This document shows, piece by piece, positions 22,453-41,750 of a stretch of 64,000 nucleotides of DNA. The stretch comes from Vulcanimicrobiota bacterium (GTDB taxonomy: Bacteria > Vulcanimicrobiota > Vulcanimicrobiia > Vulcanimicrobiales > Vulcanimicrobiaceae): assembly GCA_963777315.1 (NCBI GenBank), contig CAVZQC010000002.1, positions 416,001 to 480,000 of the forward strand, read 5' to 3'. The notes beneath the pieces are model-generated. The model did not search any database and had not been told where the DNA came from. It saw only the letters and a program-made list of their open reading frames with translations. The position numbers were made by a program, and so were the translations under genes. Positions within the stretch are counted from its first letter, which is position 1; each line of letters begins with the position of its first letter.

Positions 22453-25400
22453 CTAAATGTGAATGGTGTAATAAACGTAGAACGTGCGTCCGATCGCGTT
22501 GGGAACGTTGATGTACGCCCCGCGCCCGTTGACCGAACCGCCGGTAGTCTGACACGTTTGCCCCGCGGACGGGTTGGGCGTGCAGTTCGTGTTGTAGCCG
22601 GTGAGCGGGCCGCCGATGCCCGTCGCGACGGGTTGATAATTGCCGTTGAGCTTCATTCCGGCCGTGCCTTGATAGTATGAAGTGCTATTGAGAATGTTGA
22701 ACGGGCCGCCGCTGATGAGCCCGAAGTCGCCGATGGGATACGTCGGTCCCGAATACGCTTCGTTGAAGAGATTGTCGATCGTGAAGCCCACGGCGCCGAC
22801 GCCGATGGTCTTTTCCAAGGTCAGTTCCGCGACCAAGTTCGCATGGGAGAGCTGGCCTTGCGGCTGATTGGATTCCGGCGTGCCCAGCGTTGCTGCAACG
22901 TTGGGTTTGAACACCGATCCGGGGTTGGACGGATCGACGAACTGCGTGTTGCCGTTGCTGAGCACGTTGCCGTTAGTGGCGTTGACGTGCGGCACGACGT
23001 AGTTCACGCCGCCGTAGCTGAAGCTGGTCAGCAATCCGTCGCCGTACGGATAGCCGTCGTCGTAGTCCAACCGCATCTGGGCTCGCCAGCCCGAATGCGT
23101 GCGATACGATGCCGCCAGCGTCGAAGTGAACGGCGAAACGTATCCCACGCGGTAGAGCCCGCTGGCCGCCAGCGGATTGAGCAAGCCGTGAAACTCGTCG
23201 GCGTTGGGCACGTTCTGGCGCACGTTATTGTACGTTGCCGAGATCTGGCCCGAAAGTCCGTACGGGTTTTCTTTGGTGAGGTAGAACTCCAGGCCGTCGG
23301 CGATTTCGAGCCCGTCGTTGGTCGGGATTGAATAGAGATAGTTTGCCACGCTGCCGTTCGGACTGATTATGACCGTGTTGAACAGCGTGCGCTGCGGAAC
23401 TTTCTCGGTGATGTCCAGATCGTAGGCTCTACGCGTCCAGCCGGTAAGCTTGACCGAAACGTTGTGCGGGAACAGATGCGAATACGACACGTCGAAGTTG
23501 CTGTACGTCACCGGTTTGAGCGGCGCGACGGGATTGCCGAAGTCGCCGTTCTGAACCGACCAGTACAACTGCTCCTGATACGATTGGCACGGCACGTTGT
23601 ATCCGGTAAAGCCGCAGTCCACCGGAATCCCGTGCGTCCCGTAATAGTCGTTCGGATCGGTGCTTCTAAAGACGCCGCCGTTGTAGTTGTAGACGTGCGT
23701 AACGGCGTACATGCCCGGATTCAAATAGGGCGCAAGGCCCGCGAACTGGCTGCCGTAGTCGAACGGCGGAGCGTAGTCGCTGGCCTGGCCTTCGGGGAAT
23801 CTCGCGGTGCGTCCGTAGGAAAAGCGAACGGCGTCGTTTGCCCCGATTTGGTAAGACGCCGCGAAGCGCGGTTCGGGAACGACGGGATTGGTTTGGTCTT
23901 TGGTCAGCGGCAGAAATACCGCTTTCGGGCAGTTTCCCGGCCCGACCGGCTTACCGTTGACGAATGCGCCCGTTTCGCCGTCCGGCAATACGCCGGGCGA
24001 AGGCGTCGCATACGCGACCGGGATGTAGTACGAGGTGCAGTCGGGCAGTCTGTCCATACGGCGGCAAGTGATACCGGTGATTTTCGATGCGCACGCCGGC
24101 GTCGATTTTCAAGCGCTGGTTGGGCGTCCACGAGTCGCCCACGCTGTAGTCGAACGACGAGCCGGTGATGCGCGTGCCCGCGCCGCCGGGAATCAGTTTG
24201 AGCGTGCCGGTCGGACCCGTAATGTTCAGCGCCTTGTACAGATGCCCGCAGTAACTGTTGCCGCTGGGATCCGATCCGAGCGGGCAGTTCGGATCGCTGG
24301 GCGAGATGAAGTCGTACAGCTCGCCGCTGCTGACTCCAAACGCCGGCACGATGTTGAAGAGCTCGTCGTTGGGGAACAGACCCTCGTTGAGCGGACGCTC
24401 GCGCAAGGTGTGCACGTTCAGACGCAGCAAGTTCTTTTCGCTCAGCTGCTTGGTCATCCCGGCGTTGAACTCCGCGTTGTAGCCGCCGATGACGCGGTAG
24501 AGCGCCGAGTTCGGACTGTCCGACGTCGTCGCGCCGTTGGTCGTGTCCGCCCCGGCATAGATGTACGTCGACGAATCCGGATTCCACGTGAACTGCAGCT
24601 TCGAACCGTTCGATATTCCGTGTTCAGAGTATTCGGGACTGCCGCCCAAGAGTTGGTACGTTTGCGTTTGGCCTGGTGAAAACACGAGCAAGCTTTGAAT
24701 CTGCTGCACGGTCAGTCCGTGCGGATTGCCGTTGAAGTCCACGACGCCGGCATAGCCTGCTCCGTTCGGATAATTGCCGGGCCCGGCGGCGAAGGCGTTA
24801 ATCTGATTTGGGTCGCACGAAAAATAGCACAGGTTTCTCGACAACGCGTCGCCGTAGCCGCCGTCGGTTTCGTGCAGGCCGGTGTTGATCAGCAACTGCA
24901 GTCCGAACTTGTCGTTGCGCCCCCACTTGTACACGGTGTTGCTGAGCAGCTCGCGATCCGTCAGATACATCGGAAAATTCTCGACCCCGATGTCGTTGGC
25001 GTTGTCGGTCCAGTACGTTCCGCCGTAGCGTGGCGCGTCGTTATGGGCGGTATAGCTCAGGTACTCAGACCAGCGCCCGTTGGGCGTTGCGATGCCGTAT
25101 CCGAAGTCGGCCGAATGGAAGAAACCCGGGCCGCCGACCCCGAGCGCCGCGTCCGCCGTTCCGGGATACGTGCCGCGGCGCGCCGTTACGTTGACCGTTC
25201 CGACGCCGGAGTTGCCGAAGGTTTCGTTCTCGCTGCCCGGGCTGAGCTGAACCGAAGCCAGGCCGAAGGCCGGAAAGTTGAAGCCGTTGATGTTGCGCTG
25301 GGTGTACGGATCCGTGTAGTTCATGCCTTCGAACTCGTAGTCGACGTTGTTCGTGCGGCCGCCGCGGATTGTCGGGTAATTGCCCGAGCTGTACTGCACG

Positions 25401-25900
25401 CCCGGCAGCGCCGTGAGCAGACTTTTCTCGCTGATGTTCAGCGGGCTGCCTTGAATCGTGCTGATTTGCGCAGGCGTCACGGTGTAGGTGTCCGCGGTTT
25501 GATGCGGTTGGAACGCCCCGCCTGCCGAGCGCACGCGCACCTCAGCGATCGTCTTGAGCGACCGGCGCATCTGCACGTTCACGGTCGAAACTTGGTCGGG
25601 GGCGACGTTCACGCCCGTTTCGGAAACCGGCTCGTAGTCGCGGATTTGAAAGCTGAGCGCATACGTGTCGGAGCTTACTCCCGCCATTGCGTAAAAGCCG
25701 CGAGCGTCCGTCACGGCGCGGTACGTTCCGCTGGGCGATACGGCCGCAACCGCAACGTCGGCCAGCGCTTTGCCCGAGGATGCGTCCGTCACGACGCCGG
25801 AGATCGTTCCAACGGTGCTGGCTGCCGCCGGAGCGCACATTTGGACGAGAAATGCCAAGCCCAGCAGTATGCCTAAAAGGCCCCGGACACGTCGGTTCAT
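22453..25900 (-). CDS. TonB-dependent receptor with N-terminal carboxypeptidase-regulatory-like domain; +1 frameshift near 24049
   Basis: Signal peptide, GTISGVVTD...TDARGFY, plug LPGV..IRGG, barrel strands, DNLFN, C-terminal TFYVYYTIHI; SD GGAGG. Confidence 0.85.
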
Positions 25901-27364: not shown

Positions 27365-28060
27365 TTGAGCGCGCCGGCGACCTTGGAAGTCATCGTCACG
27401 ACCGCAGCGGAGGCGCTGGCCGCGCAGCAATACGGAGCATCGCGCGTCGAACTGGTGGCGCATCCCGAGCGAGGAGGGCTCTCGCCGCAGCTGGGCGTCG
27501 TTCGCGCGGTTCTGGGGGCGGTCCGAATTCCGGTGCATGCCATGCTGCGTCCGCACGACCGCGGTTTCGTCTACGACGCGGCAGACCGGCGCCTGATGCG
27601 GCGCTGCGCCGCCGGTTTGGCACAAGCCGGCGTGCAGGGCATCGTGTTCGGTGCACTCGATTCCGCAGGCACGATCGACACGGAGTGTTTGAGCGAGATC
27701 GTCGACGCCGCCGCCGGCGTGCAGATGACGTTCCACCGCGCGTTCGACTTGTGCGCGCATCCAATCGACGCGTTCGAACGCCTGGCGAAATTCCCGTTGG
27801 TGACGCGAGTGCTGAGCGCGGGGTGCGCGCCCGACGCGTGGAGCGGGCGGGAATTGCTGCGCGAGCTGGTTACTCGCACGACGCCGGCGGTGTTGGCCGG
27901 CGGCGGCATAAACGCTGAAAATGCCGCCGCGTTGACGGCCTTTACGGGAGTTCGTGAAATTCACGTGGGCAGCGGCGCGCGGACTGCGGGAAGCATCGAT
28001 CCCCAAAAAATCGCGCGCCTCGCGCGTATCGTGCGCGCCGGCCGGCCGGTCAGCCCTTGA
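27365..28060 (+). CDS. cutC: CutC family protein
   Basis: GASRVEL, GGLSP, MLRP..GFVY, GIVFGAL, TFHRAFD, LAGGGI. Confidence 0.9.
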   Translation: MSAPATLEVIVTTAAEALAAQQYGASRVELVAHPERGGLSPQLGVVRAVLGAVRIPVHAMLRPHDRGFVYDAADRRLMRRCAAGLAQAGVQGIVFGALDSAGTIDTECLSEIVDAAAGVQMTFHRAFDLCAHPIDAFERLAKFPLVTRVLSAGCAPDAWSGRELLRELVTRTTPAVLAGGGINAENAAALTAFTGVREIHVGSGARTAGSIDPQKIARLARIVRAGRPVSP

Positions 28061-29240
28061 ACTGCGGGATGCAGCGCTCCATCTGTGCGAGCGCGTAATC
28101 GATGTCGTCCAGTGAAGCGGCGTACGAAAACCGCAGATAGCCTTTGCCCGCGGCCCCGAACGCCGAGCCGCCCAGACACGCAACGCCGCCGTCCTGCAGC
28201 AAAAACGCCGCCAGCGCCTTGTCGTCCGACGTAATCTTTTTGACGTTGGGAAAAGCGTAAAACGCGCCTTCAGGCATCGTGCACGACATGCCGGCAATGC
28301 GGTTGAGCCCGTTCACGAGCCTGTCGCGGCGTTCGCGAAACGTGCGGTTCATGCGCTGCACCGGCTCGTCCGTGCCCAGCAGCGCGGCAACGCCTGCATG
28401 CTGAACGAAGACCGGCGTGCACGAGAACGTGTTGTTGTTGAACAGCGTAACGGTTTGCGCCAGCTGCGCGGGCATGATCGCATAGCCCAGGCGCCATCCC
28501 GTCATCGCGTACGCTTTGGAAAACCCGTCGACGACGATCGTGCGTTCGCGCATGCCCGGAATCGTGACGATCGACGCGAACTCGCTTTCGTAAAAGTTGC
28601 GGCTGTAAATTTCGTCGGCGATGACCAGGAAGTCGTGTTTTTGCGCCATCTGCGCGATGCGTTCGAGATCGCTTTTGATGAGGACGCCGCCGGTGGGATT
28701 GTGCGGTGAATTGATCATGATCGCCCGCGTTTTATCGGAAACGCGACGTTCGAGCTCGTCCAGATCCATCCGCCAGTCTTTCTCTTCGTGCAGAGGAATC
28801 GGCGTGACGTGCGCGCCCAGATAACTCGCGCATGAAGCGTAGGCCGGATACGCGGGGTCGAAATAGACGAACTCGTCTCCCGGGTTGAGAATCGCGCTCA
28901 GGATATTCCAGATAATCGGCTTGGCGCCGGGCGCGACGACCACGTTCTCGATCGAAAACGGTTCGACTCCGCGGAATTTGGCGGCGTAATTCGCAATCAC
29001 TTCGCGAAGAGCCGGCAGCCCCGCCGACGCGGAATAATGCGTGTTGTTGTCGCGAATCGACGCGATGCCCGCTTCTTTGATGTGATCGGGCGTATCGAAA
29101 TCAGGCTCGCCGATCTCCATGTGAACCACGCGCGTGCCGCGCGCTTCCAGCGCCTTCGCGCGAGCCAGGACTTCGAACGCGCTCTCGGATCCCAGTCGCG
29201 AGACCGCGTCGGCACTTGCGAAGAGCTTGGTAGCGAGCAT
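28050..29240 (-). CDS. PLP-dependent class I aminotransferase (aspartate aminotransferase-like)
   Basis: IGEPDFDTP, NSPHNPTG, DEIY, GFSKAYAMTGWRLG, GAFYAF. Confidence 0.93.
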   Translation of the reverse strand: MLATKLFASADAVSRLGSESAFEVLARAKALEARGTRVVHMEIGEPDFDTPDHIKEAGIASIRDNNTHYSASAGLPALREVIANYAAKFRGVEPFSIENVVVAPGAKPIIWNILSAILNPGDEFVYFDPAYPAYASCASYLGAHVTPIPLHEEKDWRMDLDELERRVSDKTRAIMINSPHNPTGGVLIKSDLERIAQMAQKHDFLVIADEIYSRNFYESEFASIVTIPGMRERTIVVDGFSKAYAMTGWRLGYAIMPAQLAQTVTLFNNNTFSCTPVFVQHAGVAALLGTDEPVQRMNRTFRERRDRLVNGLNRIAGMSCTMPEGAFYAFPNVKKITSDDKALAAFLLQDGGVACLGGSAFGAAGKGYLRFSYAASLDDIDYALAQMERCIPQFKG

Positions 29241-29315: not shown

Positions 29316-32300
29316 ATGCGCACCCTGTCTGATGTGTTTACGCCGGGATCGCCGACGCTGCCGGAAGGACTTCGAACCCTCGTCGTTTCGCCCGAGCGCG
29401 AGTTGGAACCTGGGATGACGGTGCGCGCAACGTTCACGTTCCGCAACCAAGGCGGCGCGCCGGCGACGGGCGTGCGCGTACGTTTCAACCTTCCCGACGG
29501 TTTGGTCTACCTGGTGGGCACCGGGCAGCTCGACGGCGCGGTCGTGGACGACGAACACGGCAACTCGCCCTTGCTGGCTCGCGCGGGCGCGGACATCGGC
29601 GATCTCGCGCCCGGTGAGGAGCGCCGGATCGAAGTCGCTTATAGCGTAGCGGGTGCGATCGAGAACGGCTCCGCCGTCGAGCTGCAGGCTGCCGTGGCCG
29701 CATTCGAGCTCGCGCCCGTCGGCTCGAACATCGTACGGCTGATTGCCCACAGCCGGCCGGCGCTGGACAATGCGCTGACCAACGTTGCCATCGAGTCCCG
29801 TCAGCACGAAGCGCGCGCGGGCGGCGAAGCGACGATCGCCGTTCGGGTGCACAACGCCGGCGAATCCAGCGCGCACGATCTGGTCGTCGTCGCTCCGGTT
29901 CCCGAATACACTGCATACGTTGCGAATTCCGCGCGCGTGAACGGCCGTGAGATCGAACGCGATCTGCTCGCGCCCTTCGATCGCGTGCACGCACCGGTGA
30001 TCGCCGCGACGCTCCCGGCCAGCGCGACGGTTACGCTGCAGTATCGCGTTCGCATCGACGATCCGATCGCCGACGGCACCGCCATCGCAGCGCGCGCGCA
30101 GGTCGCCTGCCAAGAAACGCAGGCCATCGATTTACAAGCCGCGACGCTGGTCGTGCGTGCGCGTGCGGATTTCGACGACGACGGTACGAACTTTTCGATC
30201 GAACCATCCTCGGACGTCGCTCCCGGCTCGCCCGTAACGCTGCGGCTGCGCGCGTACAACGCCGGAACGACGACGGCCGCCGGCGTCACCGTGACGCTCG
30301 CTTTGCCCGAAGGACTCATTCCCGTGCGCGGCGGCATTCGCATCGACGGACAGCCCGTGCGCGAACGAAAAGGCGGCGCGCAGATCTACGACTTGGGCTC
30401 GCTGAGCGCGCGCGAAAGCGCCGAATTCCTCGCGCAGGCAACGGTCGGCTCGCCCCTTGCGGACGCAACCCAGCTGCCGGTGCGCGCGACCCTTCGCTGG
30501 GAAGTGCCGGACGGGGGCGATCAGCCGGCGGAACGCGTCTTCGAACGCACCGTTGCGGTTCGATCGCAGCCCCACTTGAACGCGCGCCGCAACCGCGTCG
30601 AACGCGTCGGTACGCTAATCGTGCGTCCCGGCGAGGAATGTGAAGCAACTCTTACGCTGTCCAACGACGGAAGCGCGACGGCCGCCGACGCCGTGTTGCA
30701 TCTGCGCGTGGATCCGGCGCTCGACGACGTTCGCGTGCTGGACAAAACGGCCAAACTGGACGTCGACAACGACTCGGTCGAACTGGGCGCCCTGGAACCC
30801 TATTCCACGCGAAAGCTGACCGTGCGCGTCCGCGTGCGCACGCCCTATGCCGATCGCAGCGAGCTTCGGCTGGGTGCGAGCGTCCATACGCAGGAACTGG
30901 GTGAAACGCAACTGGGCGATGCCGTTTGGCGGATCGATTCGCATCCGGCGTTTTCGGCGCAGAGCTCCGGTTTGAGTTTGGTGCAAGACGACGTGTTTCG
31001 GCCCAATCAGCTCGTTGACGTGTTCGTGCGTCTGCGCAATGAGGGAACGGACGCGGCCCAAAACGTGCGGCTCCGGCTCTACGTTTCGCCCGAAGCGCGA
31101 CTGGAGAGCGTCGAAGGCGCGACGCGCGAGCGTTCCACGCTCGTGTTCGGCGAACTCGCGCCGGGCGGGAAGGCCGAAGCGCGTCTAGGTGTGCGTCTGC
31201 TGCGCAGTTTGGCCAAAACGCATCCCGTAACGATCGAAGCGGTGCTCAGCGCCGATGCGATGCTTCCGGTGCAGCTCAGCCCGCTGGCGGTGGTGACGAC
31301 CGCCGAGCCCAGCTTTGCAATCGGCACGCTGCGCAGCGAGCCCGAAGAGATCGTCGACGCCGGCGAAGAGATCGAGTTCATTCTGCACGTGCGCAACAGC
31401 GGCGACGGGCCGGCGCGCCGCGCGAAGATCTGCGCCGATACGCTGGATTCGCTCATCTACATTCCCAACTCCACCGCGGTAAACGATCTGCCGGTGCGCG
31501 ACGTGGGCTCGCAATCGCCGTTGACGAGCGAGCGCGGACTGGTCATGAGCGACGTGGATCCCGGGGTCGAAGCCACGATCCGCTGGCGCGAGGTCGTCAG
31601 CAACGCCGCGGGTTCGGGCGAAACGATCGTGCGGGAAGCGCGCATCACCTACGACGGCGATCGTATCGACCGGATCGCGGCGCATGAAGTCAAAGTGCGC
31701 TGCGCACCGGCCTTCGCCAACACGATAGCCGGCTTGCCGTTCGGGTTGGACGGCATGCTCGGGCCCGCGTTCGGCACGCACCAGCGGGCGCTAAGCGGAA
31801 GCGATTTCGTCGAACTGCCGCCCGCGACCCCAGTGACCGCAGCCGAGCCGCCTGCACGCGCGGTGCTCTCGCTTGCGGCCGGGAACGGCAACGGCCACGC
31901 GCAGATCGATGCCGAAGCCCACGAGCAGTATGCAAACGGTGCCGGAAACGTTCACATGCTGGTCGCGTTCGACCGCGACCGGCTCGAACGCACGCTGCGC
32001 TTTCTGTCCGAAGCGCGCTTTACCGGTTTGGTAACGCATTTGTTTGCCATTCGGGCGTTTTTCCCCGACGCGATCGGCTCGACCGCCGAAAGCGCATTAC
32101 ATGAAGTTCGCGAAACGCTGCGCGAAACGCTCGACCGGCTGTTCATCAAGCTGCGTTTGCCCAACTACGTGATCGCTCCGCGCGATCTCGAAAGCGCGTC
32201 CGCGCGTGCGGCGCTCGAAGCGCTGCTGGGATGCGTGGCGAGCAATGAGCCGGCTCCGCAGCTGGCTGGGTCGGTGATTCTCTCGGGCGCCGGCGACGAG

Positions 32301-32561
32301 AGCGAACTGCGCGCGCTGCGCGACAGGCTTTCCGAAGCTCCGCTCGCGACGGCGCTGCCGTGGGCGGCTTTGGCGCGCCTTTTGCCCGCCGACGGCGAAG
32401 GGTTGAGCCACTATCGCGAGATGCTGGTGAGCGCGCTGGACGAACTCGTGTCGTCGGACGAAACGGCGTTCGTCGACGCGCTGCAGCGGCGCCGGTACTC
32501 CGTGCTCGACGCGGCGCTCGACGTGGTGCGCGCGCAACTGGCCAACACCGCGCACGCATGA
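29316..32561 (+). CDS. Large DUF11-like repeat protein A (6 Ig-like repeats plus helical C-terminal domain)
   Basis: Six PG(E)..h.h.h.hxNxG...A..h units; no signal peptide. Confidence 0.85.
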   Translation: MRTLSDVFTPGSPTLPEGLRTLVVSPERELEPGMTVRATFTFRNQGGAPATGVRVRFNLPDGLVYLVGTGQLDGAVVDDEHGNSPLLARAGADIGDLAPGEERRIEVAYSVAGAIENGSAVELQAAVAAFELAPVGSNIVRLIAHSRPALDNALTNVAIESRQHEARAGGEATIAVRVHNAGESSAHDLVVVAPVPEYTAYVANSARVNGREIERDLLAPFDRVHAPVIAATLPASATVTLQYRVRIDDPIADGTAIAARAQVACQETQAIDLQAATLVVRARADFDDDGTNFSIEPSSDVAPGSPVTLRLRAYNAGTTTAAGVTVTLALPEGLIPVRGGIRIDGQPVRERKGGAQIYDLGSLSARESAEFLAQATVGSPLADATQLPVRATLRWEVPDGGDQPAERVFERTVAVRSQPHLNARRNRVERVGTLIVRPGEECEATLTLSNDGSATAADAVLHLRVDPALDDVRVLDKTAKLDVDNDSVELGALEPYSTRKLTVRVRVRTPYADRSELRLGASVHTQELGETQLGDAVWRIDSHPAFSAQSSGLSLVQDDVFRPNQLVDVFVRLRNEGTDAAQNVRLRLYVSPEARLESVEGATRERSTLVFGELAPGGKAEARLGVRLLRSLAKTHPVTIEAVLSADAMLPVQLSPLAVVTTAEPSFAIGTLRSEPEEIVDAGEEIEFILHVRNSGDGPARRAKICADTLDSLIYIPNSTAVNDLPVRDVGSQSPLTSERGLVMSDVDPGVEATIRWREVVSNAAGSGETIVREARITYDGDRIDRIAAHEVKVRCAPAFANTIAGLPFGLDGMLGPAFGTHQRALSGSDFVELPPATPVTAAEPPARAVLSLAAGNGNGHAQIDAEAHEQYANGAGNVHMLVAFDRDRLERTLRFLSEARFTGLVTHLFAIRAFFPDAIGSTAESALHEVRETLRETLDRLFIKLRLPNYVIAPRDLESASARAALEALLGCVASNEPAPQLAGSVILSGAGDESELRALRDRLSEAPLATALPWAALARLLPADGEGLSHYREMLVSALDELVSSDETAFVDALQRRRYSVLDAALDVVRAQLANTAHA

Positions 32562-32962
32562 CTTGGGTGTTCGTCGCGCTGGCGGTCGTATTCGCGGTCG
32601 GAATCGCTCTTGGCATCTACGCCTGGCGCGCGCCGCGCGCGCACGATCCGGCTCCTGCGCCGGCGCCGCAAGTCGAGCCCTGGAGCGCAACGACCGACTG
32701 GACTGCGCAAGCGGGCGCGGAATTTGCCGGTCTGTCCGAGTCGGCCCGCTGCGATCTGATCTTTGCGGTGAGCGATCTGCAGGACGATCGTTCGCACCAG
32801 CTGTTGTCGCATGCGCTGGACGATCCGTCCGATGCCGTGGCGCTGGCGGCGGCACATGCTCTGGCGCGGCGCGGTTCGGCAGCCGCCGTGAGTGAATACG
32901 CGCAGCGACGTCCCGGCGAGCGCTCCGAACGCATCGTGCAGACGCTCGCGCTGCTCGAATAG
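32558..32962 (+). CDS. Small protein B: N-terminal TM plus HEAT-like helices
   Basis: ATGA overlap; WVFVALAVVFAVGIALGIYAW; LSHALDDPSDAVALAAAHAL. Confidence 0.8.
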   Translation: MTWVFVALAVVFAVGIALGIYAWRAPRAHDPAPAPAPQVEPWSATTDWTAQAGAEFAGLSESARCDLIFAVSDLQDDRSHQLLSHALDDPSDAVALAAAHALARRGSAAAVSEYAQRRPGERSERIVQTLALLE

Positions 32963-32963
32963 C

Positions 32964-35900
32964 ATGGCAGCTCAGGATCGCTCCTCGACCGGTGCGCTGA
33001 CGGGCGTATTCGCTCCGGGCTCCCAGCCGCTGCCGGAAACGCTGCGCACGCTAGTTCTTGCGCCGCGCCGTACCGTTTCGCCGGGCGAGGTGATTCGCGC
33101 GGAGTTCGCGTTTTCCAATTTAGGGGGCGCCGCCGCTACGGGCGTACGCGTGCGGTTCGCCAATCCGTCCGGCGCAGCGTACGTCGAAGGAAGCGACACG
33201 GTCGACGAAGCTCCGCTGGCCGACGAGGTACTGGTGGCGAACACCGGTGCGTCGCTGGGCGATCTGCCGCCCGGCGCACAGCGCCGCGTCGCATGCAGTT
33301 TCCGAGTCGGCGAACGTATCGAGGACGGCTCCGAATTGCTGTTTCAAGCCGCGCTCGTTACCGATCAGACCGCCGTGGTGGCCTCGAACGTCGAGCGGCT
33401 TTCCGTTCGCAGCGAACCCCAGCTGCAGAATACTTCGACGCTGGTGACGATTGCGTCCAAAGATCGGCCCAAGCCCGACGACGTCATTCTCGTTCGCGCA
33501 ACGATTGCTAATACGGGCTCGTCGAGCGCGCACGACGTTCTCGCGCTGCTGCCCGTGCCGCAGCATACGCGCTACGTTGCGCGCAGTGCGCGCGTTGCAG
33601 GGCGCGCGCTGATCGATTCCGGCGACGAGCCCTTCGACTATGCCTCCGAGCACGTCGTCGCCGCGCGCTTAGCGCCGGGGCAATCGGTGCACTTGGAGTA
33701 CCAGGCGCGGATCGATTCACCGCTTGCGGACGGTACGCGCATCAAAGTCAGCGGAGCGGTTTCCGCGCGCGAAGTCGGCGAGTTCGACGTACAGTCCGCC
33801 GAAATCGTCGTTTCTTCACCGGCGGACTTTGCCAACGACGAGACTGCGCTCACGATATTTTGCGACGACGTCGTTTCTCCCGGAACGCGAGTGCCGATCT
33901 CCGTGCGCGCGGTGAACGCGGGCACGGGCGATGCGCAAAACGTGTCGATTGGAATCGAACTGCCGGCCGGCATAGCATATACTCCCGGCTCGGCGCACTT
34001 GGACGGACAGCCCGTCAGCGACGAAACATTCGCGGGCGGTACGTTTTCGCTGGGCGCGGTGCCGGCAGGGCGCGCGGTCGACGTCGGTATCTCCGGCATC
34101 GTGGTACTCCAGCACAGCCAGGAACAGCCCATTACGGCGACGCTGCGCTGGAAGGGCCCGGCGGGGGAAACCGGACGCGCCGAGCGCCGCTTTGCGCGCA
34201 CGTTGCGCGTTCGAGTTAGTTCGCGCTTTACCCGTGCGCGTAACTATTTGGAAGTCGATCGCAGCGGCGTTGCCTCGCGTGAAGACGTAACGTTCAGCGC
34301 GCGCGTCTTCAACGATGGAACCGCACCCGAGACCGACGTGCGCATGCGCGTGATCCCCAGCGCGTTTTTGGAGAATATTCGCATAGCCGAATCGGTGGAA
34401 GAGCCGGCGCCGTACGTCGAACCGTTCGTGCTGGGCGTACTGCAGCCGCAAGCGCAGCGAACGTTCACCATTCAAGCGCGCGTCGCCTCGCCCGTTCCCG
34501 ACCGCACGCAGGTTGCGCTCGGGGCAGTGCTCGAGTTTGCGTCCGGCACGTTCGATTTGGGCGTCGCCAACGTGATCGTGCGATCGCGTCCTCACGTCGT
34601 TGCCGGCGCGTGTACGTGGCTGTGCGAGCAGCCCGAACCTCTGCGCCCGGGGCAAACGCACGAGCTGACGATCCGCTTCACCAACGACGGTTCTGACATG
34701 CTGCGGGACGCGCGGCTGGATTTGCTGATGCCGCCCGAATTGGTTCTCGAACGCGCGCAGAACGCGCGCCGCGACGGATCCGCGCTGCTTTTCGGCGACA
34801 TCGCTGCGGAAACGACGCACGAGGCGCGCGTCGGTTTGCGCTTAGCCAGGCCACCGAAACGCGAGCGAAGCCTTACGATCGAAGGAACGCTGTCGGGACG
34901 CGGGATCAGCCCGGTGCAGTTCGATCCGCTCGAAATCGCCACGTTTGCCGAGCCGGAATTCGGACGGGACGCTCAACTGCGGTCCAGTCCCATCGAGAGC
35001 ATCAATGCGGGCGAACGCATCGCGTACGAGGTGCAGATGCGCAACAGCGGCGACGGTCCGGCCGACAGCCTCATCATACGCGCGGTGCCCTCGAATCTGG
35101 CCGTGTACGTTCCGGGCACGACGCAGCTCAACGGCGTGACGATACCCGACGATTTGGGCACGTCGCAGCTGTGGTCGCAGCGCGGTCTGGCGCTCACCGA
35201 CGTGAATCCCGACGTCGAGCTGCGAGTGCGATGGGAGATGCTCGTCATCTCTCCGATTGCCGCCGGAACGCCGATCGATACGCGCGTCGTCCTCGAGTGG
35301 GACGGCAACCATTCGGCGGCGCTGACGGCGCCGACGCTGCACGTATTCTCCGCACCGTCGCTCGCGGCCGGAACCACCGGCACGCCCATTTCCGTCGCGC
35401 AGCTGCTGCCGGTTCTTGAAACGCCCGCGCGCGAATCTATCGTCGCGCCGGTAGCTCCACCGGCCGCACAGCGCGTGCATGAGCCTCCCATTATCGCAGA
35501 GCCCGAGCTCGCAGAGCCCGAGCTCAGAGAACCCGAGCTCAGAGAACCCGAGCCCGCGGAACCCGAGCTCGCAGAGCCCGAACTCGCAGAGCCCGAGCTC
35601 GCTCACGAGTCACCGGTTGTCGCACAGCCCGAGAAAGAAGAGCCGGAACCCGAGCTCGCGCAAGAGCCGCTGGTCGCCGAAGAACCCGAACGAGAAGAAC
35701 CCGAGCTCGCGCAAGAGCCGCCGGTTGTCGAAGAACCCGAGCGAGAAGAGGCCGAGCTGGCGCAAGCGCCGCGCGTTGTCGAAGAACCCGAGATCGCAGA
35801 GCCGGAAATCGCTGGAGAAGAGCAAGTTTTCGAAGGGCCGGAAATCGTGCAGATGCCGCCGGTTTTCGATGAGCCGCTCATTGCACAGCCCCCTGCGGTT

Positions 35901-36644
35901 GCAACGGCGATGGCGCCGGTCCCGTCAGAACCGCCGGCCACGCCGGAAGCGGGCCAAGACGCCGCGCATGCGACGCTGTATTACGATTATTCTCCCGACC
36001 AACTCGCTCGAACGATCCGTACGCTGGAGCGAACCGACGCCGGCGGCCTCATTGCGCATATCTTCGCCGCGCGCGCGCTCTTGCCCAACGCGCTGGCGGG
36101 AGCCGATCCCAAAACTGCGCAGACGATGGAGAATGCGGCGATCGCGCTGCGAGCTCCGCTGGATCGCTTTTTCGTGCGGCTGCGCATGCCGCGTCTTGCC
36201 GTTACGGCCAAAGATTTGGAAGACCGCGAGAGCCGCTCGGCATTGCGCGCATTGGTCGACGCTGCGATCGGGGCGCAGCCTTTTGCCGCGGAGCAGCGCG
36301 GTTCCGGCGTCGTACGGTTATTGGGCGCGCTCGATCCGAACGTGCTGCGCGAGCGCATGCCGGAACTTGAATCGGCGCCGTTGGGGTCGGTCTTACCATG
36401 GAGCATCAACGCACAGCTGCTCGGCACGCGAATCGAGTACGACGGTTCCGCGGACGAGCCGGGCAGCAGCGAAGTATTGGGCATGTACCGCAACGAGCTC
36501 ATCGACGTCTTCAACGTGCTTGAAACCCTTCCGCTGCCGGAGTTTCATCGCGTCCTGAGCTCGAGCGTCAATCGAACGCTCGACGATGCACTAGGCGCGG
36601 TGCTCGATGCGTTGCGCACGGCCGCTCACGTTGTCGCCGGTTAG
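32964..36644 (+). CDS. Large DUF11-like repeat protein A' (paralogue of A, with E/P-rich linker)
   Basis: Collinear with A (LRTLV..P, ATGVRVRF, SAHD, RNSGDGPA, LDR.F..LR.P). Confidence 0.85.
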   Translation: MAAQDRSSTGALTGVFAPGSQPLPETLRTLVLAPRRTVSPGEVIRAEFAFSNLGGAAATGVRVRFANPSGAAYVEGSDTVDEAPLADEVLVANTGASLGDLPPGAQRRVACSFRVGERIEDGSELLFQAALVTDQTAVVASNVERLSVRSEPQLQNTSTLVTIASKDRPKPDDVILVRATIANTGSSSAHDVLALLPVPQHTRYVARSARVAGRALIDSGDEPFDYASEHVVAARLAPGQSVHLEYQARIDSPLADGTRIKVSGAVSAREVGEFDVQSAEIVVSSPADFANDETALTIFCDDVVSPGTRVPISVRAVNAGTGDAQNVSIGIELPAGIAYTPGSAHLDGQPVSDETFAGGTFSLGAVPAGRAVDVGISGIVVLQHSQEQPITATLRWKGPAGETGRAERRFARTLRVRVSSRFTRARNYLEVDRSGVASREDVTFSARVFNDGTAPETDVRMRVIPSAFLENIRIAESVEEPAPYVEPFVLGVLQPQAQRTFTIQARVASPVPDRTQVALGAVLEFASGTFDLGVANVIVRSRPHVVAGACTWLCEQPEPLRPGQTHELTIRFTNDGSDMLRDARLDLLMPPELVLERAQNARRDGSALLFGDIAAETTHEARVGLRLARPPKRERSLTIEGTLSGRGISPVQFDPLEIATFAEPEFGRDAQLRSSPIESINAGERIAYEVQMRNSGDGPADSLIIRAVPSNLAVYVPGTTQLNGVTIPDDLGTSQLWSQRGLALTDVNPDVELRVRWEMLVISPIAAGTPIDTRVVLEWDGNHSAALTAPTLHVFSAPSLAAGTTGTPISVAQLLPVLETPARESIVAPVAPPAAQRVHEPPIIAEPELAEPELREPELREPEPAEPELAEPELAEPELAHESPVVAQPEKEEPEPELAQEPLVAEEPEREEPELAQEPPVVEEPEREEAELAQAPRVVEEPEIAEPEIAGEEQVFEGPEIVQMPPVFDEPLIAQPPAVATAMAPVPSEPPATPEAGQDAAHATLYYDYSPDQLARTIRTLERTDAGGLIAHIFAARALLPNALAGADPKTAQTMENAAIALRAPLDRFFVRLRMPRLAVTAKDLEDRESRSALRALVDAAIGAQPFAAEQRGSGVVRLLGALDPNVLRERMPELESAPLGSVLPWSINAQLLGTRIEYDGSADEPGSSEVLGMYRNELIDVFNVLETLPLPEFHRVLSSSVNRTLDDALGAVLDALRTAAHVVAG
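35496..35600 (+). repeat. 7 x 15-bp coding tandem repeat (AEPEL-type)
   Basis: gcagagcccgagctc and variants. Confidence 0.9.
35646..35792 (+). repeat. About 3 x 51-bp coding tandem repeat (EPELAQEPxVxEEPERE)
   Basis: Units start at 35646, 35697 and 35748. Confidence 0.85.
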
Positions 36645-36933
36645 TTGGGACGTCGCCATCGGTCTGGCCTTCGTGGTCGGATTACTGCTGCTGGGAATCA
36701 GTGCCTCGATGCTGCGAACAATCCGCTCGAGCGATCATGCCGGAAACGGTGCTCAGTGGCCGCAACTCGTCGATGAAGAACTCACCGGGGCCGGCAAATC
36801 GCTGCGGTTGGACATCGTCGAACGCTTGAGCTTAGTGGACAATGGCTGGAGCCGCGGAATTTTGGAGCGTGCGCGTACGCAGGAACGGGATCCCGACGTG
36901 CGCGCCGTGATCGACAAGGCGCTTTCGACTTAA
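36631..36933 (+). CDS. Small protein B' (TM plus HEAT-like), paralogue of B; start uncertain
   Basis: VAIGLAFVVGLLLLGI TM; shares W....E..G.....R.D pattern with B. Confidence 0.7.
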   Translation: MSPVSWDVAIGLAFVVGLLLLGISASMLRTIRSSDHAGNGAQWPQLVDEELTGAGKSLRLDIVERLSLVDNGWSRGILERARTQERDPDVRAVIDKALST

Positions 36934-37754
36934 CGAAACAGCGCGTTGAGTTCGGAATGCGAGATGCGATCCGCGATACGTTCGAACGTTCCGTCTTTGT
37001 GTATTCCGCGCGCAAAATTGCGAAAAGCTGCCAGCGCGACTCCAATCGTCGCTGAACCCAGGCTCACGCGTGCGACGCCGAGTTTGCGCAGTCGCGAGAG
37101 CGGCGGCGTCGCGGCTCCCGCTAGGACGTTGAGCGGACCCTCGATGCGCTCGGCCAGCGCAGCGATCGTTTTTTCATCGGTTACGCCCGGTACGAACGCG
37201 CAGGCGGCACCGGCTTGCAAAAAGGCGTTCGCGCGCGCAATCGCTTCTTCCAACCGCCATTCATCGTTATCGCCCGCTTCGGCGAGAAAAACGTCCGTGC
37301 GCGCGTTGACGACCAGCGGTACGCCCATCTCATCGCCGGCGGCAACGATGGCCGCGATGCGGCGGCATTGCAGCTCCCGATCGATCAGCGGCAGTCGTTC
37401 GCGCGAGGCATCCTCGAAATTCAATCCCACGGCGCCCGCATGGACGGCGCCGCGCGCCGTGAGCGCCGCGGCCTCCACGCTGCTGCCGTAGCCGGATTCC
37501 AGATCGGCCGATACCGGAACGTCCACGGCGGCCGCGATGCTGCGCACGCCTTCGAGCATTTTTTCTCGCGGGATGTGCTCGCCGTCGGCAAACCCTGCGG
37601 AAAACGCCACGCCGGCGCTCGTGGTCGCTACGGCGGAAAAGCCCAGTTCCTCGACGATCCGCGCGCTGACGGCGTCCCACGCGTTGACCAAAACGAGCGG
37701 CTCGCCGGGCTTGTGCATTGCGCGCAGTTCCCGAGCTTTCTCCGCTTGCTTCAT
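36930..37754 (-). CDS. Isocitrate lyase/PEP mutase family protein
   Basis: NAWDAVSAR, ATTSAGVA, ADLESGYG, GLNFED, NARTD; SD GGAGG. Confidence 0.9.
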   Translation of the reverse strand: MKQAEKARELRAMHKPGEPLVLVNAWDAVSARIVEELGFSAVATTSAGVAFSAGFADGEHIPREKMLEGVRSIAAAVDVPVSADLESGYGSSVEAAALTARGAVHAGAVGLNFEDASRERLPLIDRELQCRRIAAIVAAGDEMGVPLVVNARTDVFLAEAGDNDEWRLEEAIARANAFLQAGAACAFVPGVTDEKTIAALAERIEGPLNVLAGAATPPLSRLRKLGVARVSLGSATIGVALAAFRNFARGIHKDGTFERIADRISHSELNALFR

Positions 37755-38037
37755 GCGCAGATGTCCTCCATTCTAACAAGAGCCGTTTCGCGACGGCTGC
37801 TCTTCGCTCCGTCTGTGCCGTTCGTGCATGAGATTCGCAACCTCGTCGGAATACAACGAAGTCTATAGCGCAGCATTGGTCTGGCCAATTTGGAAAGTAT
37901 AATGTGACGACTCGTGTTGTCGCGCCTTCAGGTGGGGGCCTATCCCAAGGGCGATCCATAAGGAGTCGAGCTGCCGACGAAACTGCAACGTCTCGGAACG
38001 TCTCGGTGTCATTCAAGAACGCGGTCGATTCAGAGCG

Positions 38038-38465
38038 CTAAGAACGTGGGAGCACCTGCACGAAATAATGAACGATACGGCACGATACGCATCGTTCTTT
38101 GAACTTCGGTAGTTTGAGTTCAATGCTCGCGCTCGCCCTACCCATTCTCCGAGCAACAAACGCCTCTGCGTGATCCCCGTCGGCATTCATTCCTTCGATG
38201 CGACAAAAGGGCATCTTGGCATTGGCGGAACAATTGAGGTCACGCCGAAGATCTCGGCGATCAATTTGACGAATACCGATTCTGTGAAGTGCATCACCTG
38301 ACTCGCTAACGGCTGCGCCGGCGTCGTACAGTGGCAGCAGTACGATATCGCCGATCCTTAGAGTGGTCGTCTGTTCGGGTAGCGCTACAACGGTTGACGC
38401 TATCGCGACTTGTCTGCTTACAGAAAGGAGCAGAACACACGCCGTCGCTGCGGTTAACGTTTCAT
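38038..38465 (-). pseudogene. Hypothetical secreted protein, probable single-base deletion just after start
   Basis: GGAG SD plus ATG AAA CGT TAA; adding one base gives MK(R/T)LTAATACVLLL...AIA, a signal peptide in frame with the 38038 ORF. Confidence 0.45.
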
Positions 38466-39081
38466 TAAGAACTCCAATCGGGCCCGAACCCCACATAGTT
38501 TTCTCCACCTCGTCCTCCGAACTTCAAACGACCCGAACGCCGCGGGTATTCATCTGCGGATCCGGCCAAAGGAGCTTGGATTAGGCGACCGTGAGTCTGA
38601 GCGGCTTGGGTGCTTGTGAAGTATATCCGGGTGTAGGCGCATGCAAACGTTACCTGTGCAAACTCCTCAGGCGACGCCGAATCTAGTTTGTTCCACCCTC
38701 TTGCATTTAACGGAATATGAGGGCGCACTGCAGCCCGATGATCTATTTCGGATTGACGTCCGGCTTTGTAGAGGCGAGGGGCTCTGGACCGCCACTTCGT
38801 AAAGTGGCCACCGCTAGCTCGGCGTTTGGGCGCCGTACCGCTCGCGCAGTTTGGATGAATTGAGACACATCCTATACCGAGGAAGTTCGGACCAATGTAG
38901 AAAGCGGCCTCAGGGCGACGGCAAGAGACGCGCGGCGCCCTGTAGAGGAGCGTCTAAGAGCTGGGACCCGCAGTTCGACAGCGCGCTAAGCGGTGACTCC
39001 GATCCACCGAAGGCGCAGCAACCCTCAGAAGGAGCGTATGTTGGAACGATGTACTCGACCGTTCTATTTGAAAGAGCCGTA

Positions 39082-39477
39082 ATGCGCGATAAGAGTCTTG
39101 TTTCATCGATTATTGCTTTTAGAGCGCTAAATTTTCTGGTTGAGCGTTTTGCGCTAAAGCTCAGCAGCGAAAGTTTAACCGTCCTTGCAGGTGAAATGGA
39201 GCCGGCGGCTGGCCATCCCGCCGGCGATCCCGCTCTATGGGAAACCTGGAAAGATCTTTGGGGCACGCAATCATTACGAAGTGAAGAAGAAGCATCAAAA
39301 GTTGCTGCTGGCTTCATGCTTCGCGAAGGAGACTGGGGAAGCGACGACGCGCATCTCATTATAGCGCAAAAGCTCAAAGAATGCGAAAACGATTGCGATG
39401 TGCGGGACGAGTGGGGCTACGCGTTAGACAAATCAAGGAATCTAGCGGATGCGCGAGTTTGGAATCCAACCGAGTGA
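39082..39477 (+). CDS. Orphan immunity-like hypothetical protein
   Basis: TAATG start; small acidic Trp-rich helical protein with AF.AL..L.E...GDPALWETW; AT-richer codons. Confidence 0.5.
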   Translation: MRDKSLVSSIIAFRALNFLVERFALKLSSESLTVLAGEMEPAAGHPAGDPALWETWKDLWGTQSLRSEEEASKVAAGFMLREGDWGSDDAHLIIAQKLKECENDCDVRDEWGYALDKSRNLADARVWNPTE

Positions 39478-39518
39478 ATTTGATCCCGATTCCGTGGATG
39501 CTTCCCGCTTGGTCGGAG

Positions 39519-39829
39519 TGAAGCTCGCCCGCTTTCGTGGACATTTCCGTTTCGGCGGAAAAGGGTGCTGAGCCTTACCCGTTTCGTAGATCGAGAACGA
39601 TCCGTGGAAAAACCGGCTTGTGAGCTATTTCGATGTATATCTGCTGAAGTTGCCCGGCTTCCGTGGATAGCTTGGATTGGAAAGTTCTGCCGCGGTTTCC
39701 CGCTCAAAGACCGCCGGCGGTATCGCATCTTAGCCGGAACTCTAGGAGGTAGGCTCGACGATGTTTCTTGGCCATTGGTGGCCCCTTCTCCGAAAGTTGA
39801 AAGTGTCCACGCGATCCAAGTCAGCTTCA
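39519..39829 (-). mobile_element. Internally deleted IS3-family element (MITE-like)
   Basis: Imperfect terminal IRs TGAAGCT...CGTGGACA at both ends; SD plus ATG at 39775 encoding MAKKHRRAYLLEFR (OrfA-like N-terminus), then degenerate. Confidence 0.65.
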
Positions 39830-39881
39830 GACCGCGAAAAATCGGTCGTTGATTTCGAATCTCAAGCGTATAGGAACGACC

Positions 39882-41750
39882 TCAGGATCCGGATGCCTTC
39901 TTGTTGAAATACTCGACCATAATCTCGCGCGCGATCGGCGCAGCCACCTGCGCGCCGTAACCGCCGGAGCGATCGACGAACACCGCCATCGCGATCTTGG
40001 CATGCTTTGCCGGCGCGTACGCGACGAACCAGGTAGTATTCGGCCCGGAACCGCCCGCCGTTTCGGCCGTGCCCGTTTTGCCGCCGAACGGCAAACCATC
40101 TATCGCAAGCCCATACGCTGTTCCCCACGGCTGCGTTACCTGATCCATGCCCGCGCGCACCGCTTTGAGCGCTTCTTGCGTCACCGCGACGTGCCGGATG
40201 ATTTGCGCACCGAACGTCTTGACGATGCGGCCGTTGCGATCCCGGATCTGTCCGACGATTTGTGGCTTGTAGAGCGTACCGCCGTTGACTACAGCCGATT
40301 CCACGTTGGCCATCTGCAGCGGCGTGGCTTGCAGCGCTCCCTGGCCAATCGCTAAACTGCACACGTCCGACGGTTCCAACGGAAGGCCCGCGACTTTGAG
40401 CATCCACGCGTTCGTCGGGTAATTGCCGGCGAATTCACCCGGAAGGTCGATGCCGGTCTTTTGCCCGATGCCGAACGAACGCGCGTATTTGCGCAGCCGC
40501 TCGTTCCCGAGGCGATATCCCATTTGATAGAAGTATCCGTCCGACGAAGCGGCCAGCGCGTGGACGAACTGGGTGGTGCCCAAGCCGCCCGAGGCGATGT
40601 CTTCGAATTCCGCGCCGTAGCAATTCCACGCGCCGCTGTCGTACACGTTCTCGTTCACCTTGACCACGCCCGAACTGATGGCGGCGGATCCCGTGACCAT
40701 TTTGAACGTCGAACCCGTCGGCGTAGCCGCTTCGATCGCTCGGTTGAACAGCGGCTGCGACGGATCGAGCAGGTAATGCGCTACCTTCTTGTTGTCGTCG
40801 GATGCAAAGGCGTTGGGATCGAATCCCGGATAGCTGGCCAGGGCGAGCACTTTGCCAGACCACGGATCCAAAATGGCGACCGCCCCGCTCACTTGGCGTT
40901 TTCCGCCGGTCCAGCTGTGAATGCCGTTTGCCAGCGCGCGTTCCGTAATCGCCTGCAGGCGCCAATCCAAATTGAGGATCAAGCTGTCGCCCGCGGCCGG
41001 TTGTTTGGACGGCAGCTTGATGCCGGGAACGACTTGGTTTTGCGAATCGACGACGATGCGCTGGCCGCCCGGATCGCCGCGCAGATACCGATCGTATTGA
41101 TATTCGATGCCGTCCTTGCCGATCACGTCGTTCATCGAATAGCCCTGACTGCGCCGCTTTTTGTATTCGTCCGGCGTGATTTGACCCACGTAACCGAAGA
41201 CGGCTGAGCCCAGCGAACCGTGCGGATAATCGCGCACGGCCTGCACCTCTAAGTCGACGCCGGGCAAATCGTTGAGTATTTCCGACAGCCGGCTCACCTT
41301 CGCAACGGGAATGTCCGTAGCCAAAATCACCGGGCCGTACGGCTCGTATGCGGCGACTTGCTCGAACGACGTATAGTTTACGCCGTGATGGTGCAGCAGC
41401 TGATCGCGCAGCTTGCGTGCGGGCACGCCGATCGTTCCGGCAACGGTGTCGAGCTCGGCGCGAATGTCTCTGACCTCGGAGGGAATAAGCGCGACGACGA
41501 ACGACGGACGGCTGCGAACCACCACGTTGCCGTTGCGATCGTAGATTAACCCGCGGGGCGCAGCGACGGGAATCAGCCGCACTTGATTGGCTTGCGCGGC
41601 GGCGCGATACTCTTGACCGTGGACGAGCTGCACTTGGACCAGTCTTGCGACCAGCGCGATCAGCGCCAGGACGAACGCCACGACGAAAACCGCGATCCGC
41701 GGCGTTGAATACTGCCACGGCACGGGCCGGCTTTGCCGGCCGGTCTTCAT
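39882..41750 (-). CDS. mrdA: Penicillin-binding protein 2
   Basis: APRGLIYDRNG, GKDGIE, STFK, SSD, KTG; follows mreCD. Confidence 0.95.
   Translation of the reverse strand: MKTGRQSRPVPWQYSTPRIAVFVVAFVLALIALVARLVQVQLVHGQEYRAAAQANQVRLIPVAAPRGLIYDRNGNVVVRSRPSFVVALIPSEVRDIRAELDTVAGTIGVPARKLRDQLLHHHGVNYTSFEQVAAYEPYGPVILATDIPVAKVSRLSEILNDLPGVDLEVQAVRDYPHGSLGSAVFGYVGQITPDEYKKRRSQGYSMNDVIGKDGIEYQYDRYLRGDPGGQRIVVDSQNQVVPGIKLPSKQPAAGDSLILNLDWRLQAITERALANGIHSWTGGKRQVSGAVAILDPWSGKVLALASYPGFDPNAFASDDNKKVAHYLLDPSQPLFNRAIEAATPTGSTFKMVTGSAAISSGVVKVNENVYDSGAWNCYGAEFEDIASGGLGTTQFVHALAASSDGYFYQMGYRLGNERLRKYARSFGIGQKTGIDLPGEFAGNYPTNAWMLKVAGLPLEPSDVCSLAIGQGALQATPLQMANVESAVVNGGTLYKPQIVGQIRDRNGRIVKTFGAQIIRHVAVTQEALKAVRAGMDQVTQPWGTAYGLAIDGLPFGGKTGTAETAGGSGPNTTWFVAYAPAKHAKIAMAVFVDRSGGYGAQVAAPIAREIMVEYFNKKASGS

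Follow-up and report, generated by a model that had tools for sequence, protein, structure and literature searches.

Arrays of immunoglobulin-like (Ig) domains of the DUF11/CLIPPER type (PF01345, TIGR01451) are described from fibrillar adhesins, in which the repeats usually form stalks; according to the accessible part of the report, the CLIPPER domains of adhesins contain a Lys-Asp-Asn isopeptide triad and some DUF11 domains do not (PMC12617251). In the partly available sources DUF11 proteins are also reported from spore appendages (PMC5749712, PMC12357932), and DUF11 arrays of variable number act as structural rods or spacers in C. taeniosporum CRD/P29, F-Anchor-3 and L. aerophila GhlA, the last being reported without a signal peptide. 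FimV/HubP, a polar landmark protein, is, in the available text, a single polypeptide with periplasmic LysM and Ig-like domains, a membrane anchor, a long acidic unstructured cytoplasmic region, a compact helical module and a C-terminal TPR part, and is tied to type IV pili and cyclic di-GMP (c-di-GMP) (PMC12918733). Here we compare with these systems a locus from a soil bacterium of the Vulcanimicrobiota, situated in a stretch of 64,000 nucleotides (nt) (contig CAVZQC010000002.1, positions 416,001 to 480,000), hereafter called the window. The locus consists of four co-directional, tightly packed genes, A, B, A' and B' (29316-36933, plus strand); A and A' encode giant DUF11 proteins, and B and B' encode small proteins with a transmembrane (TM) helix and a HEAT-like module. 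A and B were found to be a two-gene unit that is confined to one order of Vulcanimicrobiota and is homologous to a gene pair of type IVa pilus operons. We tentatively propose that they form a two-piece, membrane-tethered cytoplasmic scaffold which may position or regulate surface-appendage machinery, chiefly type IV pili.

The tandem Ig domains are what A and A' have in common with the DUF11/CLIPPER adhesins: PF01345 matched with 109.9 bits (A) and 76.9 bits (A') at a Pfam cut-off of 24.6, and TIGR01451 with 85.9 and 72 at a cut-off of 24. In contrast to the adhesins, both proteins lack a signal peptide and the isopeptide Lys and Asn, show a cytoplasm-like composition, contain no adhesive or cell-surface sorting domain of Pfam or NCBIfam, and possess a new C-terminal domain (C-domain) and an obligate TM-HEAT partner. 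A structure model of A, built from 46 sequences, contained six all-beta sandwiches arranged like beads on a string (residues 21-144, 156-281, 292-415, 427-540, 552-661 and 671-795; predicted local distance difference test (pLDDT) mostly 85-95), in keeping with the DUF11/CLIPPER fold, an Ig-like beta-sandwich with seven to nine strands; residues 1-19 and 799-865 were disordered. For the whole model the pLDDT was 85.4 and the predicted template modelling score (pTM) 0.38, so that the inter-domain geometry is not fixed and the coat suggested in a first-pass annotation of the window finds no support. The same annotation had proposed two collinear paralogues of 1081 and 1226 amino acids (aa) with six DUF11-like repeats, a flexible linker and a shared helical C-domain of about 190 aa, and without TM segment or signal peptide. 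This description was borne out (36.5% identity between A and A' across 854 columns, plus 29.7% in the C-terminal part), as were both motifs quoted for the C-domain, which are present in A and A'; the domain itself is larger, about 205 aa, and has two beta-strands besides its helices. The length of the linker varied from 13 to 270 aa over 46 homologues. Conservation within the family was highest at residues 3-20 of A (0.75), although these are disordered when A is modelled as a monomer, as would be expected of a candidate binding motif. PDB sequence searches gave nothing significant. The best Foldseek matches of the full A model were the Ig rods of the ciliary central apparatus, which are likewise cytoplasmic Ig-like chains, but TM-scores of at most 0.2 and identities of 10-15% indicate a common generic fold and no sign of kinship.

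The C-domain was modelled with confidence (pLDDT 95.8, pTM 0.92) and matched no Pfam family, no Foldseek entry at E 0.001 and no Atlas entry; its closest structural match among 48,161 chains had a Z of 4.7, a weak match by which a new fold is not proven. In these searches the domain thus had no match to a known family, in line with the first-pass annotation, and no clear match to a solved fold. Its profile found 273 clusters at E 0.001 among 1.84 billion representatives, and the domain stood at or near the C-terminus in nearly all full-length proteins among the 150 matches listed. His908, Tyr1033 and Arg1034 of A are invariant, as are a Trp, an Arg and a Leu of the B module.

B matched HEAT_2 (PF13646) with 21.4 bits (E 3e-4), under the cut-off of 27.7, and B' had no Pfam HEAT match. 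The hydrophobic stretch is N-terminal in both proteins (over 17 residues the hydropathy of B' reaches 2.65). Profiles made from these same sequences show that B is homologous to B'. In the sister family and some genera a long B form of 200 aa exists, which exceeded the HEAT_2 cut-off (31.6 and 35.6 bits); its N-terminal module matched B' (98.2%) and its C-terminal part matched B (97.2%). By these profile matches B and B' are complementary halves of the longer form and not plain paralogues, so that of the initial pairing of each giant with a small TM-HEAT paralogue the coupling and the homology remain and simple paralogy does not. Longer, fused B' forms were not found among 8000 scored candidates, which is weak evidence of their absence. 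An apparent A-B fusion (P0022) was set aside for its frameshift-ridden look.

The named relatives are Candidatus Baltobacteraceae, classed in Vulcanimicrobiaceae, Vulcanimicrobiota. The C-domain profile matched 222 of 401 genomes of the phylum, namely 216 of 296 in the family, 5/5 in the sister family and the source genome, and 0/99 elsewhere. A small gene starts -14 to +38 nt from the stop of the C-domain gene in 46/46 loci (L042 was excluded as a duplicate of L038), and 44 of these 46 downstream genes encode an N-terminal hydrophobic stretch at the start picked. For the genus g34, the count of which covers 33 of 80 genomes, B was present in 20/20 A-positive and 0/13 A-negative genomes. The B genes are therefore linked to A in relatives, as the first-pass annotation supposed, and in g34 are lost together with it. 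The order A-B-A'-B' was contiguous in the source genome and 8 other loci and interrupted in 2, and 11 loci had a single A-B pair, which supports four-gene synteny for part of the relatives only. A' formed one clade of 11 rows (support 99) in a quick tree of 66 rows from which the G019 row was omitted. Thus, A-B is the unit and the four-gene form a duplication within a lineage; a heteromer of A, A', B and B' as the functional unit is not supported, given the single pairs of many genomes and the restriction of A' to one lineage. Genomes flagged as unpublished (G019, G036, G225, G244, G255, G271, G346, G360, G371, G410) are included in the genome tallies, and G019 supplies one row in the arrangement, coupling, B-type and 35-locus neighbour counts; no claim depends solely on such genomes.

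The main locus was stable across relatives, with the aminotransferase gene beside A in 22/35 loci. Variants of the pair were also seen. In G018 a small antitoxin-like and PIN-like gene pair is inserted between B and A' (L026:10450-11175). In genus g13 the main locus (L044:7756-9411, L060:8402-10087) encodes an A of 550 aa, in which about three Ig domains are present, together with a B of 85 aa. Shortened divergent A-B paralogues in L057-L059 and L062 all face a crp gene, behind which a GGDEF gene lies in two cases, and three of them are convergent with tig-clpP-clpX.

The pair A-B is probably cytoplasmic and anchored by B, judging from several sequence features that agree with the membrane-tethered location favoured at first. 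By reading, no signal-peptide-like N-terminus was found in 73 library matches of at least 500 aa, some of them fragments. For A and A' the absence of a signal peptide and TM segment was judged by hydropathy and reading of the N-terminus (maximum in a 19-residue window 1.54 for A, 1.43 for A' and 2.64 for B). A composition-based export classifier, for which 121 exported-looking and 844 cytoplasmic-looking proteins of the source genome, labelled heuristically, served as the training set (cross-validated area under the curve 0.92), gave the repeat regions a P(exported) of 0.12 (A) and 0.27 (A'), compared to 0.97-0.99 for a surface-type DUF11 control of a relative. Glu+Arg amounted to 16.6% in A and 14.9% in A', values reached by only 4% and 9% of the exported set. 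No repeat had a Lys at or up to two residues from the isopeptide site in more than 6/46 sequences, or an Asn in more than 3/46, the sites being located from one control repeat while two further control repeats aligned imperfectly. A is placed in the cytoplasm because of the missing signal peptide, the lost isopeptide residues and this composition. Among B-type proteins a TM helix was present in 163/165, and Lys/Arg were more numerous after it than before it in 162/163, a lopsided comparison in that few residues precede the helix. By the positive-inside rule the positively charged side of a TM helix is the cytoplasmic one, and the HEAT part of B is therefore predicted to be cytoplasmic.

Alternatively, A could leave the cell without a signal peptide, possibly via the pilus/secretin machine, and form a fibre or adhesin at the surface, with the C-domain as export or anchoring signal and B as membrane chaperone or receptor. 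This would suit the adhesin stalks and spore appendages mentioned above, a hook filament protein with 49 DUF11 domains that in the available text lacks a signal peptide but has an N-terminal hydrophobic stretch (PMC13319060), and the site of a C-domain gene beside pilQ (see below), which fits a substrate as well. We regard it as quite unlikely, since the composition of A and A' is cytoplasm-like, the isopeptide Lys and Asn are missing, Pfam and NCBIfam contain no adhesive or sorting domain matching them, no transporter is conserved beside the pair, and the soluble part of B is predicted inside. The spore-appendage and hook proteins have their final site outside the cell or on the spore, and the accessible parts of these reports describe no TM-HEAT partner or comparable C-domain.

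The main functional clue came from relatives and lies beyond what the window sequence could show. C-domain matches at E 1e-5 to 1e-8 were obtained in five genomes, four of which carry the domain in a gene, X, of 360-510 aa directly after the secretin gene. X matched the C-domain of A in hhalign (98.3%, E 1.4e-14, 201 columns), and the next gene, Y, encodes a TM-HEAT protein matching long B (97.1%, 138 columns). An X profile matched 27/401 genomes; in 16 of them X is genuine, one contains the six-Ig sister form, and the other 10 are weak cross-matches. The gene order was pilB-pilT-pilC-pilA-pilD-pilM-pilN-pilO-pilP-pilQ-X-Y-pilT2-GGDEF, with pilQ-X adjacent in 15/16 and X-Y-pilT2 in 14/16 genomes, the remainder being interrupted by contig ends. 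X-Y thus resembles the accessory genes of the type IVa pilMNOPQ operon in having a constant place, after pilQ and before the second ATPase gene of the PilT family, and the A-B copy of the window differs from them in standing outside the pil operon. The labels pilB, pilT (both copies), pilC, pilA, pilD, pilM and pilQ are supported by Pfam/NCBIfam and pilN weakly, and two genes are presumably pilO and pilP by their position and the usual gene order. X and Y matched no pilus family of Pfam or NCBIfam. Canonical A was found in 0/16 X genomes, and X-Y and A-B therefore look like alternatives. In one X genome (G182, L073:683-7891) about 1 kb separates the end of the pil operon from the same aminotransferase gene that stands beside A in other loci, an arrangement absent from four other X genomes checked. 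The sister of X is a six-Ig protein outside the pil operon (G275, L068:1550-2920), followed by a partner without TM helix, in which a long coiled-coil-like stretch rich in Glu, Ala and Arg is combined with a HEAT-like module at the C-terminus.

In addition to an A-B pair, a 62-kb contig of another genome (G026:C76; L040, L063-L065) carries genes for c-di-GMP enzymes and what looks like the complete operon of a type IVa pilus; it was read as a conjugative element from relaxase-, coupling-protein- and VirB-like genes recognized by eye. Its order is pilB-T-C-?-D-M/N-O-Q-GGDEF-HD-GYP-A-B-prepilin-motif gene; A is full-length (1110 aa) and its start overlaps the HD-GYP stop. No further plasmid-type pairs were found in PLSDB, two metagenome scans and 200 further genomes of the class. 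GGDEF genes adjoin the pair or sit within two genes of it in four other loci. These neighbours raise the possibility that A-B is a localised c-di-GMP hub which tethers diguanylate cyclases and phosphodiesterases at the membrane, pili being one output. A GGDEF gene closes the X-Y operon, GGDEF and HD-GYP genes precede A on the putative conjugative element, GGDEF genes stand beside the crp-linked paralogues, and the GGDEF proteins of the last two settings align over most of their length (34%, E 1e-43). Such a hub is distinctly improbable, however: the main locus, that of the window included, has no GGDEF neighbour, the GGDEF protein of the X operon belongs to a different subfamily, and GGDEF genes are common in these genomes.

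For location, binding and function of the scaffold we infer the following. B would lie in the inner membrane with its N-terminus out and its HEAT module inside, as its charge bias suggests, and A would stay in the cytoplasm. The C-domain of A may dock on the HEAT module of B, since the gene coupling is strict and only these two parts are kept in every version. As the working core, the docked parts might be in contact with the pilus machine on its motor side (PilT/PilB/PilM), or with c-di-GMP enzymes encoded nearby, because of the gene order in relatives. The Ig chain, with 0, 1, 3 or 6 domains, could extend into the cytoplasm and serve as a flexible spacer or docking rod, and a further partner or another A might be bound by the conserved peptide at the N-terminus. 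In the source genome the pair would have been duplicated in tandem, an ancestral two-module B being divided between B and B'. By analogy only, A-B may work like FimV/HubP with no shared domain: the acidic region and the anchor of the latter have counterparts only if the A and B proteins are taken together, in the linker of A' with its 30% acidic residues and the TM helix of B, and both systems combine these with a compact helical module and a tie to pili and c-di-GMP. Unlike FimV/HubP, A-B consists of two proteins, has no periplasmic domain, and contains a HEAT module and an unrelated C-domain; none of the four proteins matched LysM or the FimV/TPR domain in Pfam and NCBIfam.

Several results weigh against this scaffold or its tie to pili. 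Y compared directly with window-type B reached only 1.4%. The plasmid-type pair was found on a single contig, in 1/201 genomes. The pil operon of the source genome ends at pilQ without X-Y, and A-B lies far from it there and in most relatives. In g34, pilT was matched in 0/80 and flagellin in 0/33 genomes, yet the C-domain is kept in 35/80. Outside g34 the association of A with pilT is weak (147 genomes with both, 34 with A only, 23 with pilT only, 12 with neither; odds ratio 2.3, p 0.07, kin not being independent), and both A and X are missing from eleven pilT-positive genomes of the family. In the other families of the phylum 99/99 genomes contain pilT and 0/99 the C-domain; pili therefore do not need the C-domain. 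The X genomes probably form one clade, which leaves about two independent events behind the pilus link; as X has no Ig rod, that link may be restricted to X-Y. As to location, X scored 0.69 exported in the composition test, and DUF11 structures without a signal peptide that end up outside the cell do exist in the partly available literature. On this evidence against a pure pilus role, the pair would be an accessory and not a core part. A strict dependence of A on pilT was rejected, as 69/216 A-positive family genomes, 35 of them in g34, have no pilT match.

The C-domain genes of g34, a genus unlike most of the phylum in having no pilT and flagellin matches, are mostly full-length frames. Secretin and paired T2SSF genes occur in 5/5 g34 genomes whether A is present or not, which we take to be Tad pili; PilM gave no match in 33 g34 genomes, in a search that had no positive control and was not used. 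The source genome itself has three Tad-like clusters (C2 near 395 and 640 kb, C4 near 734 kb), and a sigma-factor-like gene stands between pilC and the pilin gene in its pil operon (G000:C4:437315-438058).

A rival reading is a general cytoplasmic membrane scaffold for cell pole, cell shape or internal membranes, not tied to pili in particular; one clade would then have taken up X-Y, a derived copy, into its pilus operon. In its favour, roughly half of the loci examined have the ancestral locus facing the end of the maf-mreB-mreC-mreD-mrdA cluster (18/35 with an mrdA-like gene), the pair persists in g34 without pilT and flagellin, the six-Ig sister of X stands outside the pil operon, and a cultured relative has vesicular internal membranes according to the available part of the report (PMC9758169). 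We nevertheless consider such a scaffold somewhat unlikely, as the mre genes are convergent and not co-transcribed with the pair, several paralogues lie elsewhere, X-Y replaces A-B in 16 genomes instead of adding to it, and loss is commonest in the non-motile g34 (45/80 without match), where loss of the whole pair argues against an essential role in shape.

A one-Ig paralogue would connect the family to a further appendage. It was matched in 77/151 genomes of the family, and in 7/7 loci read it follows an AAA_22 ATPase gene beside flagellin-, fliD- and fliS-like genes. The ATPase is TIGR03015-like with a score under the cut-off, and we take it to be ExeA/MshM-like. The C-domain of the paralogue is probably kin to that of A, from a weak profile match (28.6%, E 6e-4). 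In the source genome it lies in a flagellar filament and glycosylation island (G000:C4:775506-776884, L066) and is frameshifted in the assembly; the gene is intact in many relatives. A bolder extension of the scaffold proposal would be an order-wide cytoplasmic skeleton for surface appendages. A domain of new fold would attach to a HEAT anchor in the membrane and would have found use in at least three places: within type IVa pilus operons, next to the ExeA-like ATPase in the island of flagellar filament genes, and as the terminal part of a six-Ig rod. Such rods, built from an adhesin stalk domain that now points inward, would link head to tail via the conserved N-terminal peptide into a sub-membrane lattice marking the pole. 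We regard this extension as speculative and unlikely.

The language-model features of X resembled clusters labelled CTD1, CTD7 or Cap4 (scores 0.94-0.96), from which the C-domain could be thought to belong with defence modules such as ABC-three-component C-terminal domains. Such a relationship is highly improbable, as PADLOC families gave 0 matches for 9/9 proteins at E 0.1 and the locus, set among housekeeping genes, is stable and passed on vertically.

Of the components, the Ig and HEAT modules are known; the C-domain, the pairing and the pilus-operon form are real and undescribed, matching no family or paper found. In a literature without most subscription papers, searches gave nothing on DUF11 in Eremiobacterota, nothing on the A-B pair by title or abstract start, and only unrelated work on type IV pili with HEAT repeat, pilQ and polar. 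Placement and regulation of pili are largely uncharted in bacteria outside Proteobacteria. The sole cultured member of the phylum moves toward light with type IV pili, as stated in the accessible part of the report (PMC9758169), and the pair is a concrete candidate for pilus placement that can be tested in the cultured strain. If the proposal is true, an extracellular adhesin domain has been redeployed as a cytoplasmic rod. Whatever its function, the C-domain of 205 residues, with a confident model and no clear structural relative, is a good target for structure determination.

The features of the locus are compiled in Table 1.

Table 1. Positions of the A-B-A'-B' genes, their parts and the flanking genes in the window.
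Feature	Position	Strand	Remarks
Gene A	29316..32561	+	1081 aa; N-terminal peptide, six DUF11/CLIPPER-type Ig domains, linker, C-domain
A, N-terminal peptide	29322..29375	+	residues 3-20; candidate binding motif; conservation 0.75, disordered in model
A, six Ig domains	29376..31700	+	without isopeptide Lys and Asn
A, Ig domains singly	29376-29747, 29781-30158, 30189-30560, 30594-30935, 30969-31298, 31326-31700	+	
A, disordered linker	31710..31910	+	residues 799-865
A, C-domain	31947..32555	+	about 205 aa; two strands and ten helices
Gene B	32558..32962	+	134 aa
B, TM helix	about 32561-32623	+	N-terminal
B, HEAT-like module	about 32699-32959	+	predicted cytoplasmic; Pro/Ala linker between TM helix and module
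Gene A'	32964..36644	+	1226 aa; collinear paralogue of A
A', acidic proline-rich linker	35484..35964	+	30% Glu+Asp, 21% Pro, 11 EPE[LIP] units
A', C-domain	35988..36641	+	
Gene B'	36631..36933	+	100 aa from TTG start; TM helix and one HEAT-like module
Class I aminotransferase gene	28050..29240	-	flank outside the unit; divergent
PrpB/PEP-mutase-like gene	36930..37754	-	flank outside the unit; convergent, closes the operon

The start of B overlaps the stop of A (ATGA), A' starts one base past the stop of B, and the first 14 nt of B' overlap the end of A'; alternatively, B' could start from an in-frame ATG (36607). The aminotransferase gene and the PrpB/PEP-mutase-like gene mark the outer limits of the four-gene run, for which a promoter/terminator scan gave a result at chance level. 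Between the PrpB-like gene and mrdA, the region 38001-40000 of the window has 54% GC compared to about 64% and contains no clear gene, possibly representing an insertion. Two overlapping open reading frames (649 and 534 aa) at 22453-25900 on the minus strand appear to be a TonB-dependent-receptor-like gene split by a frameshift.

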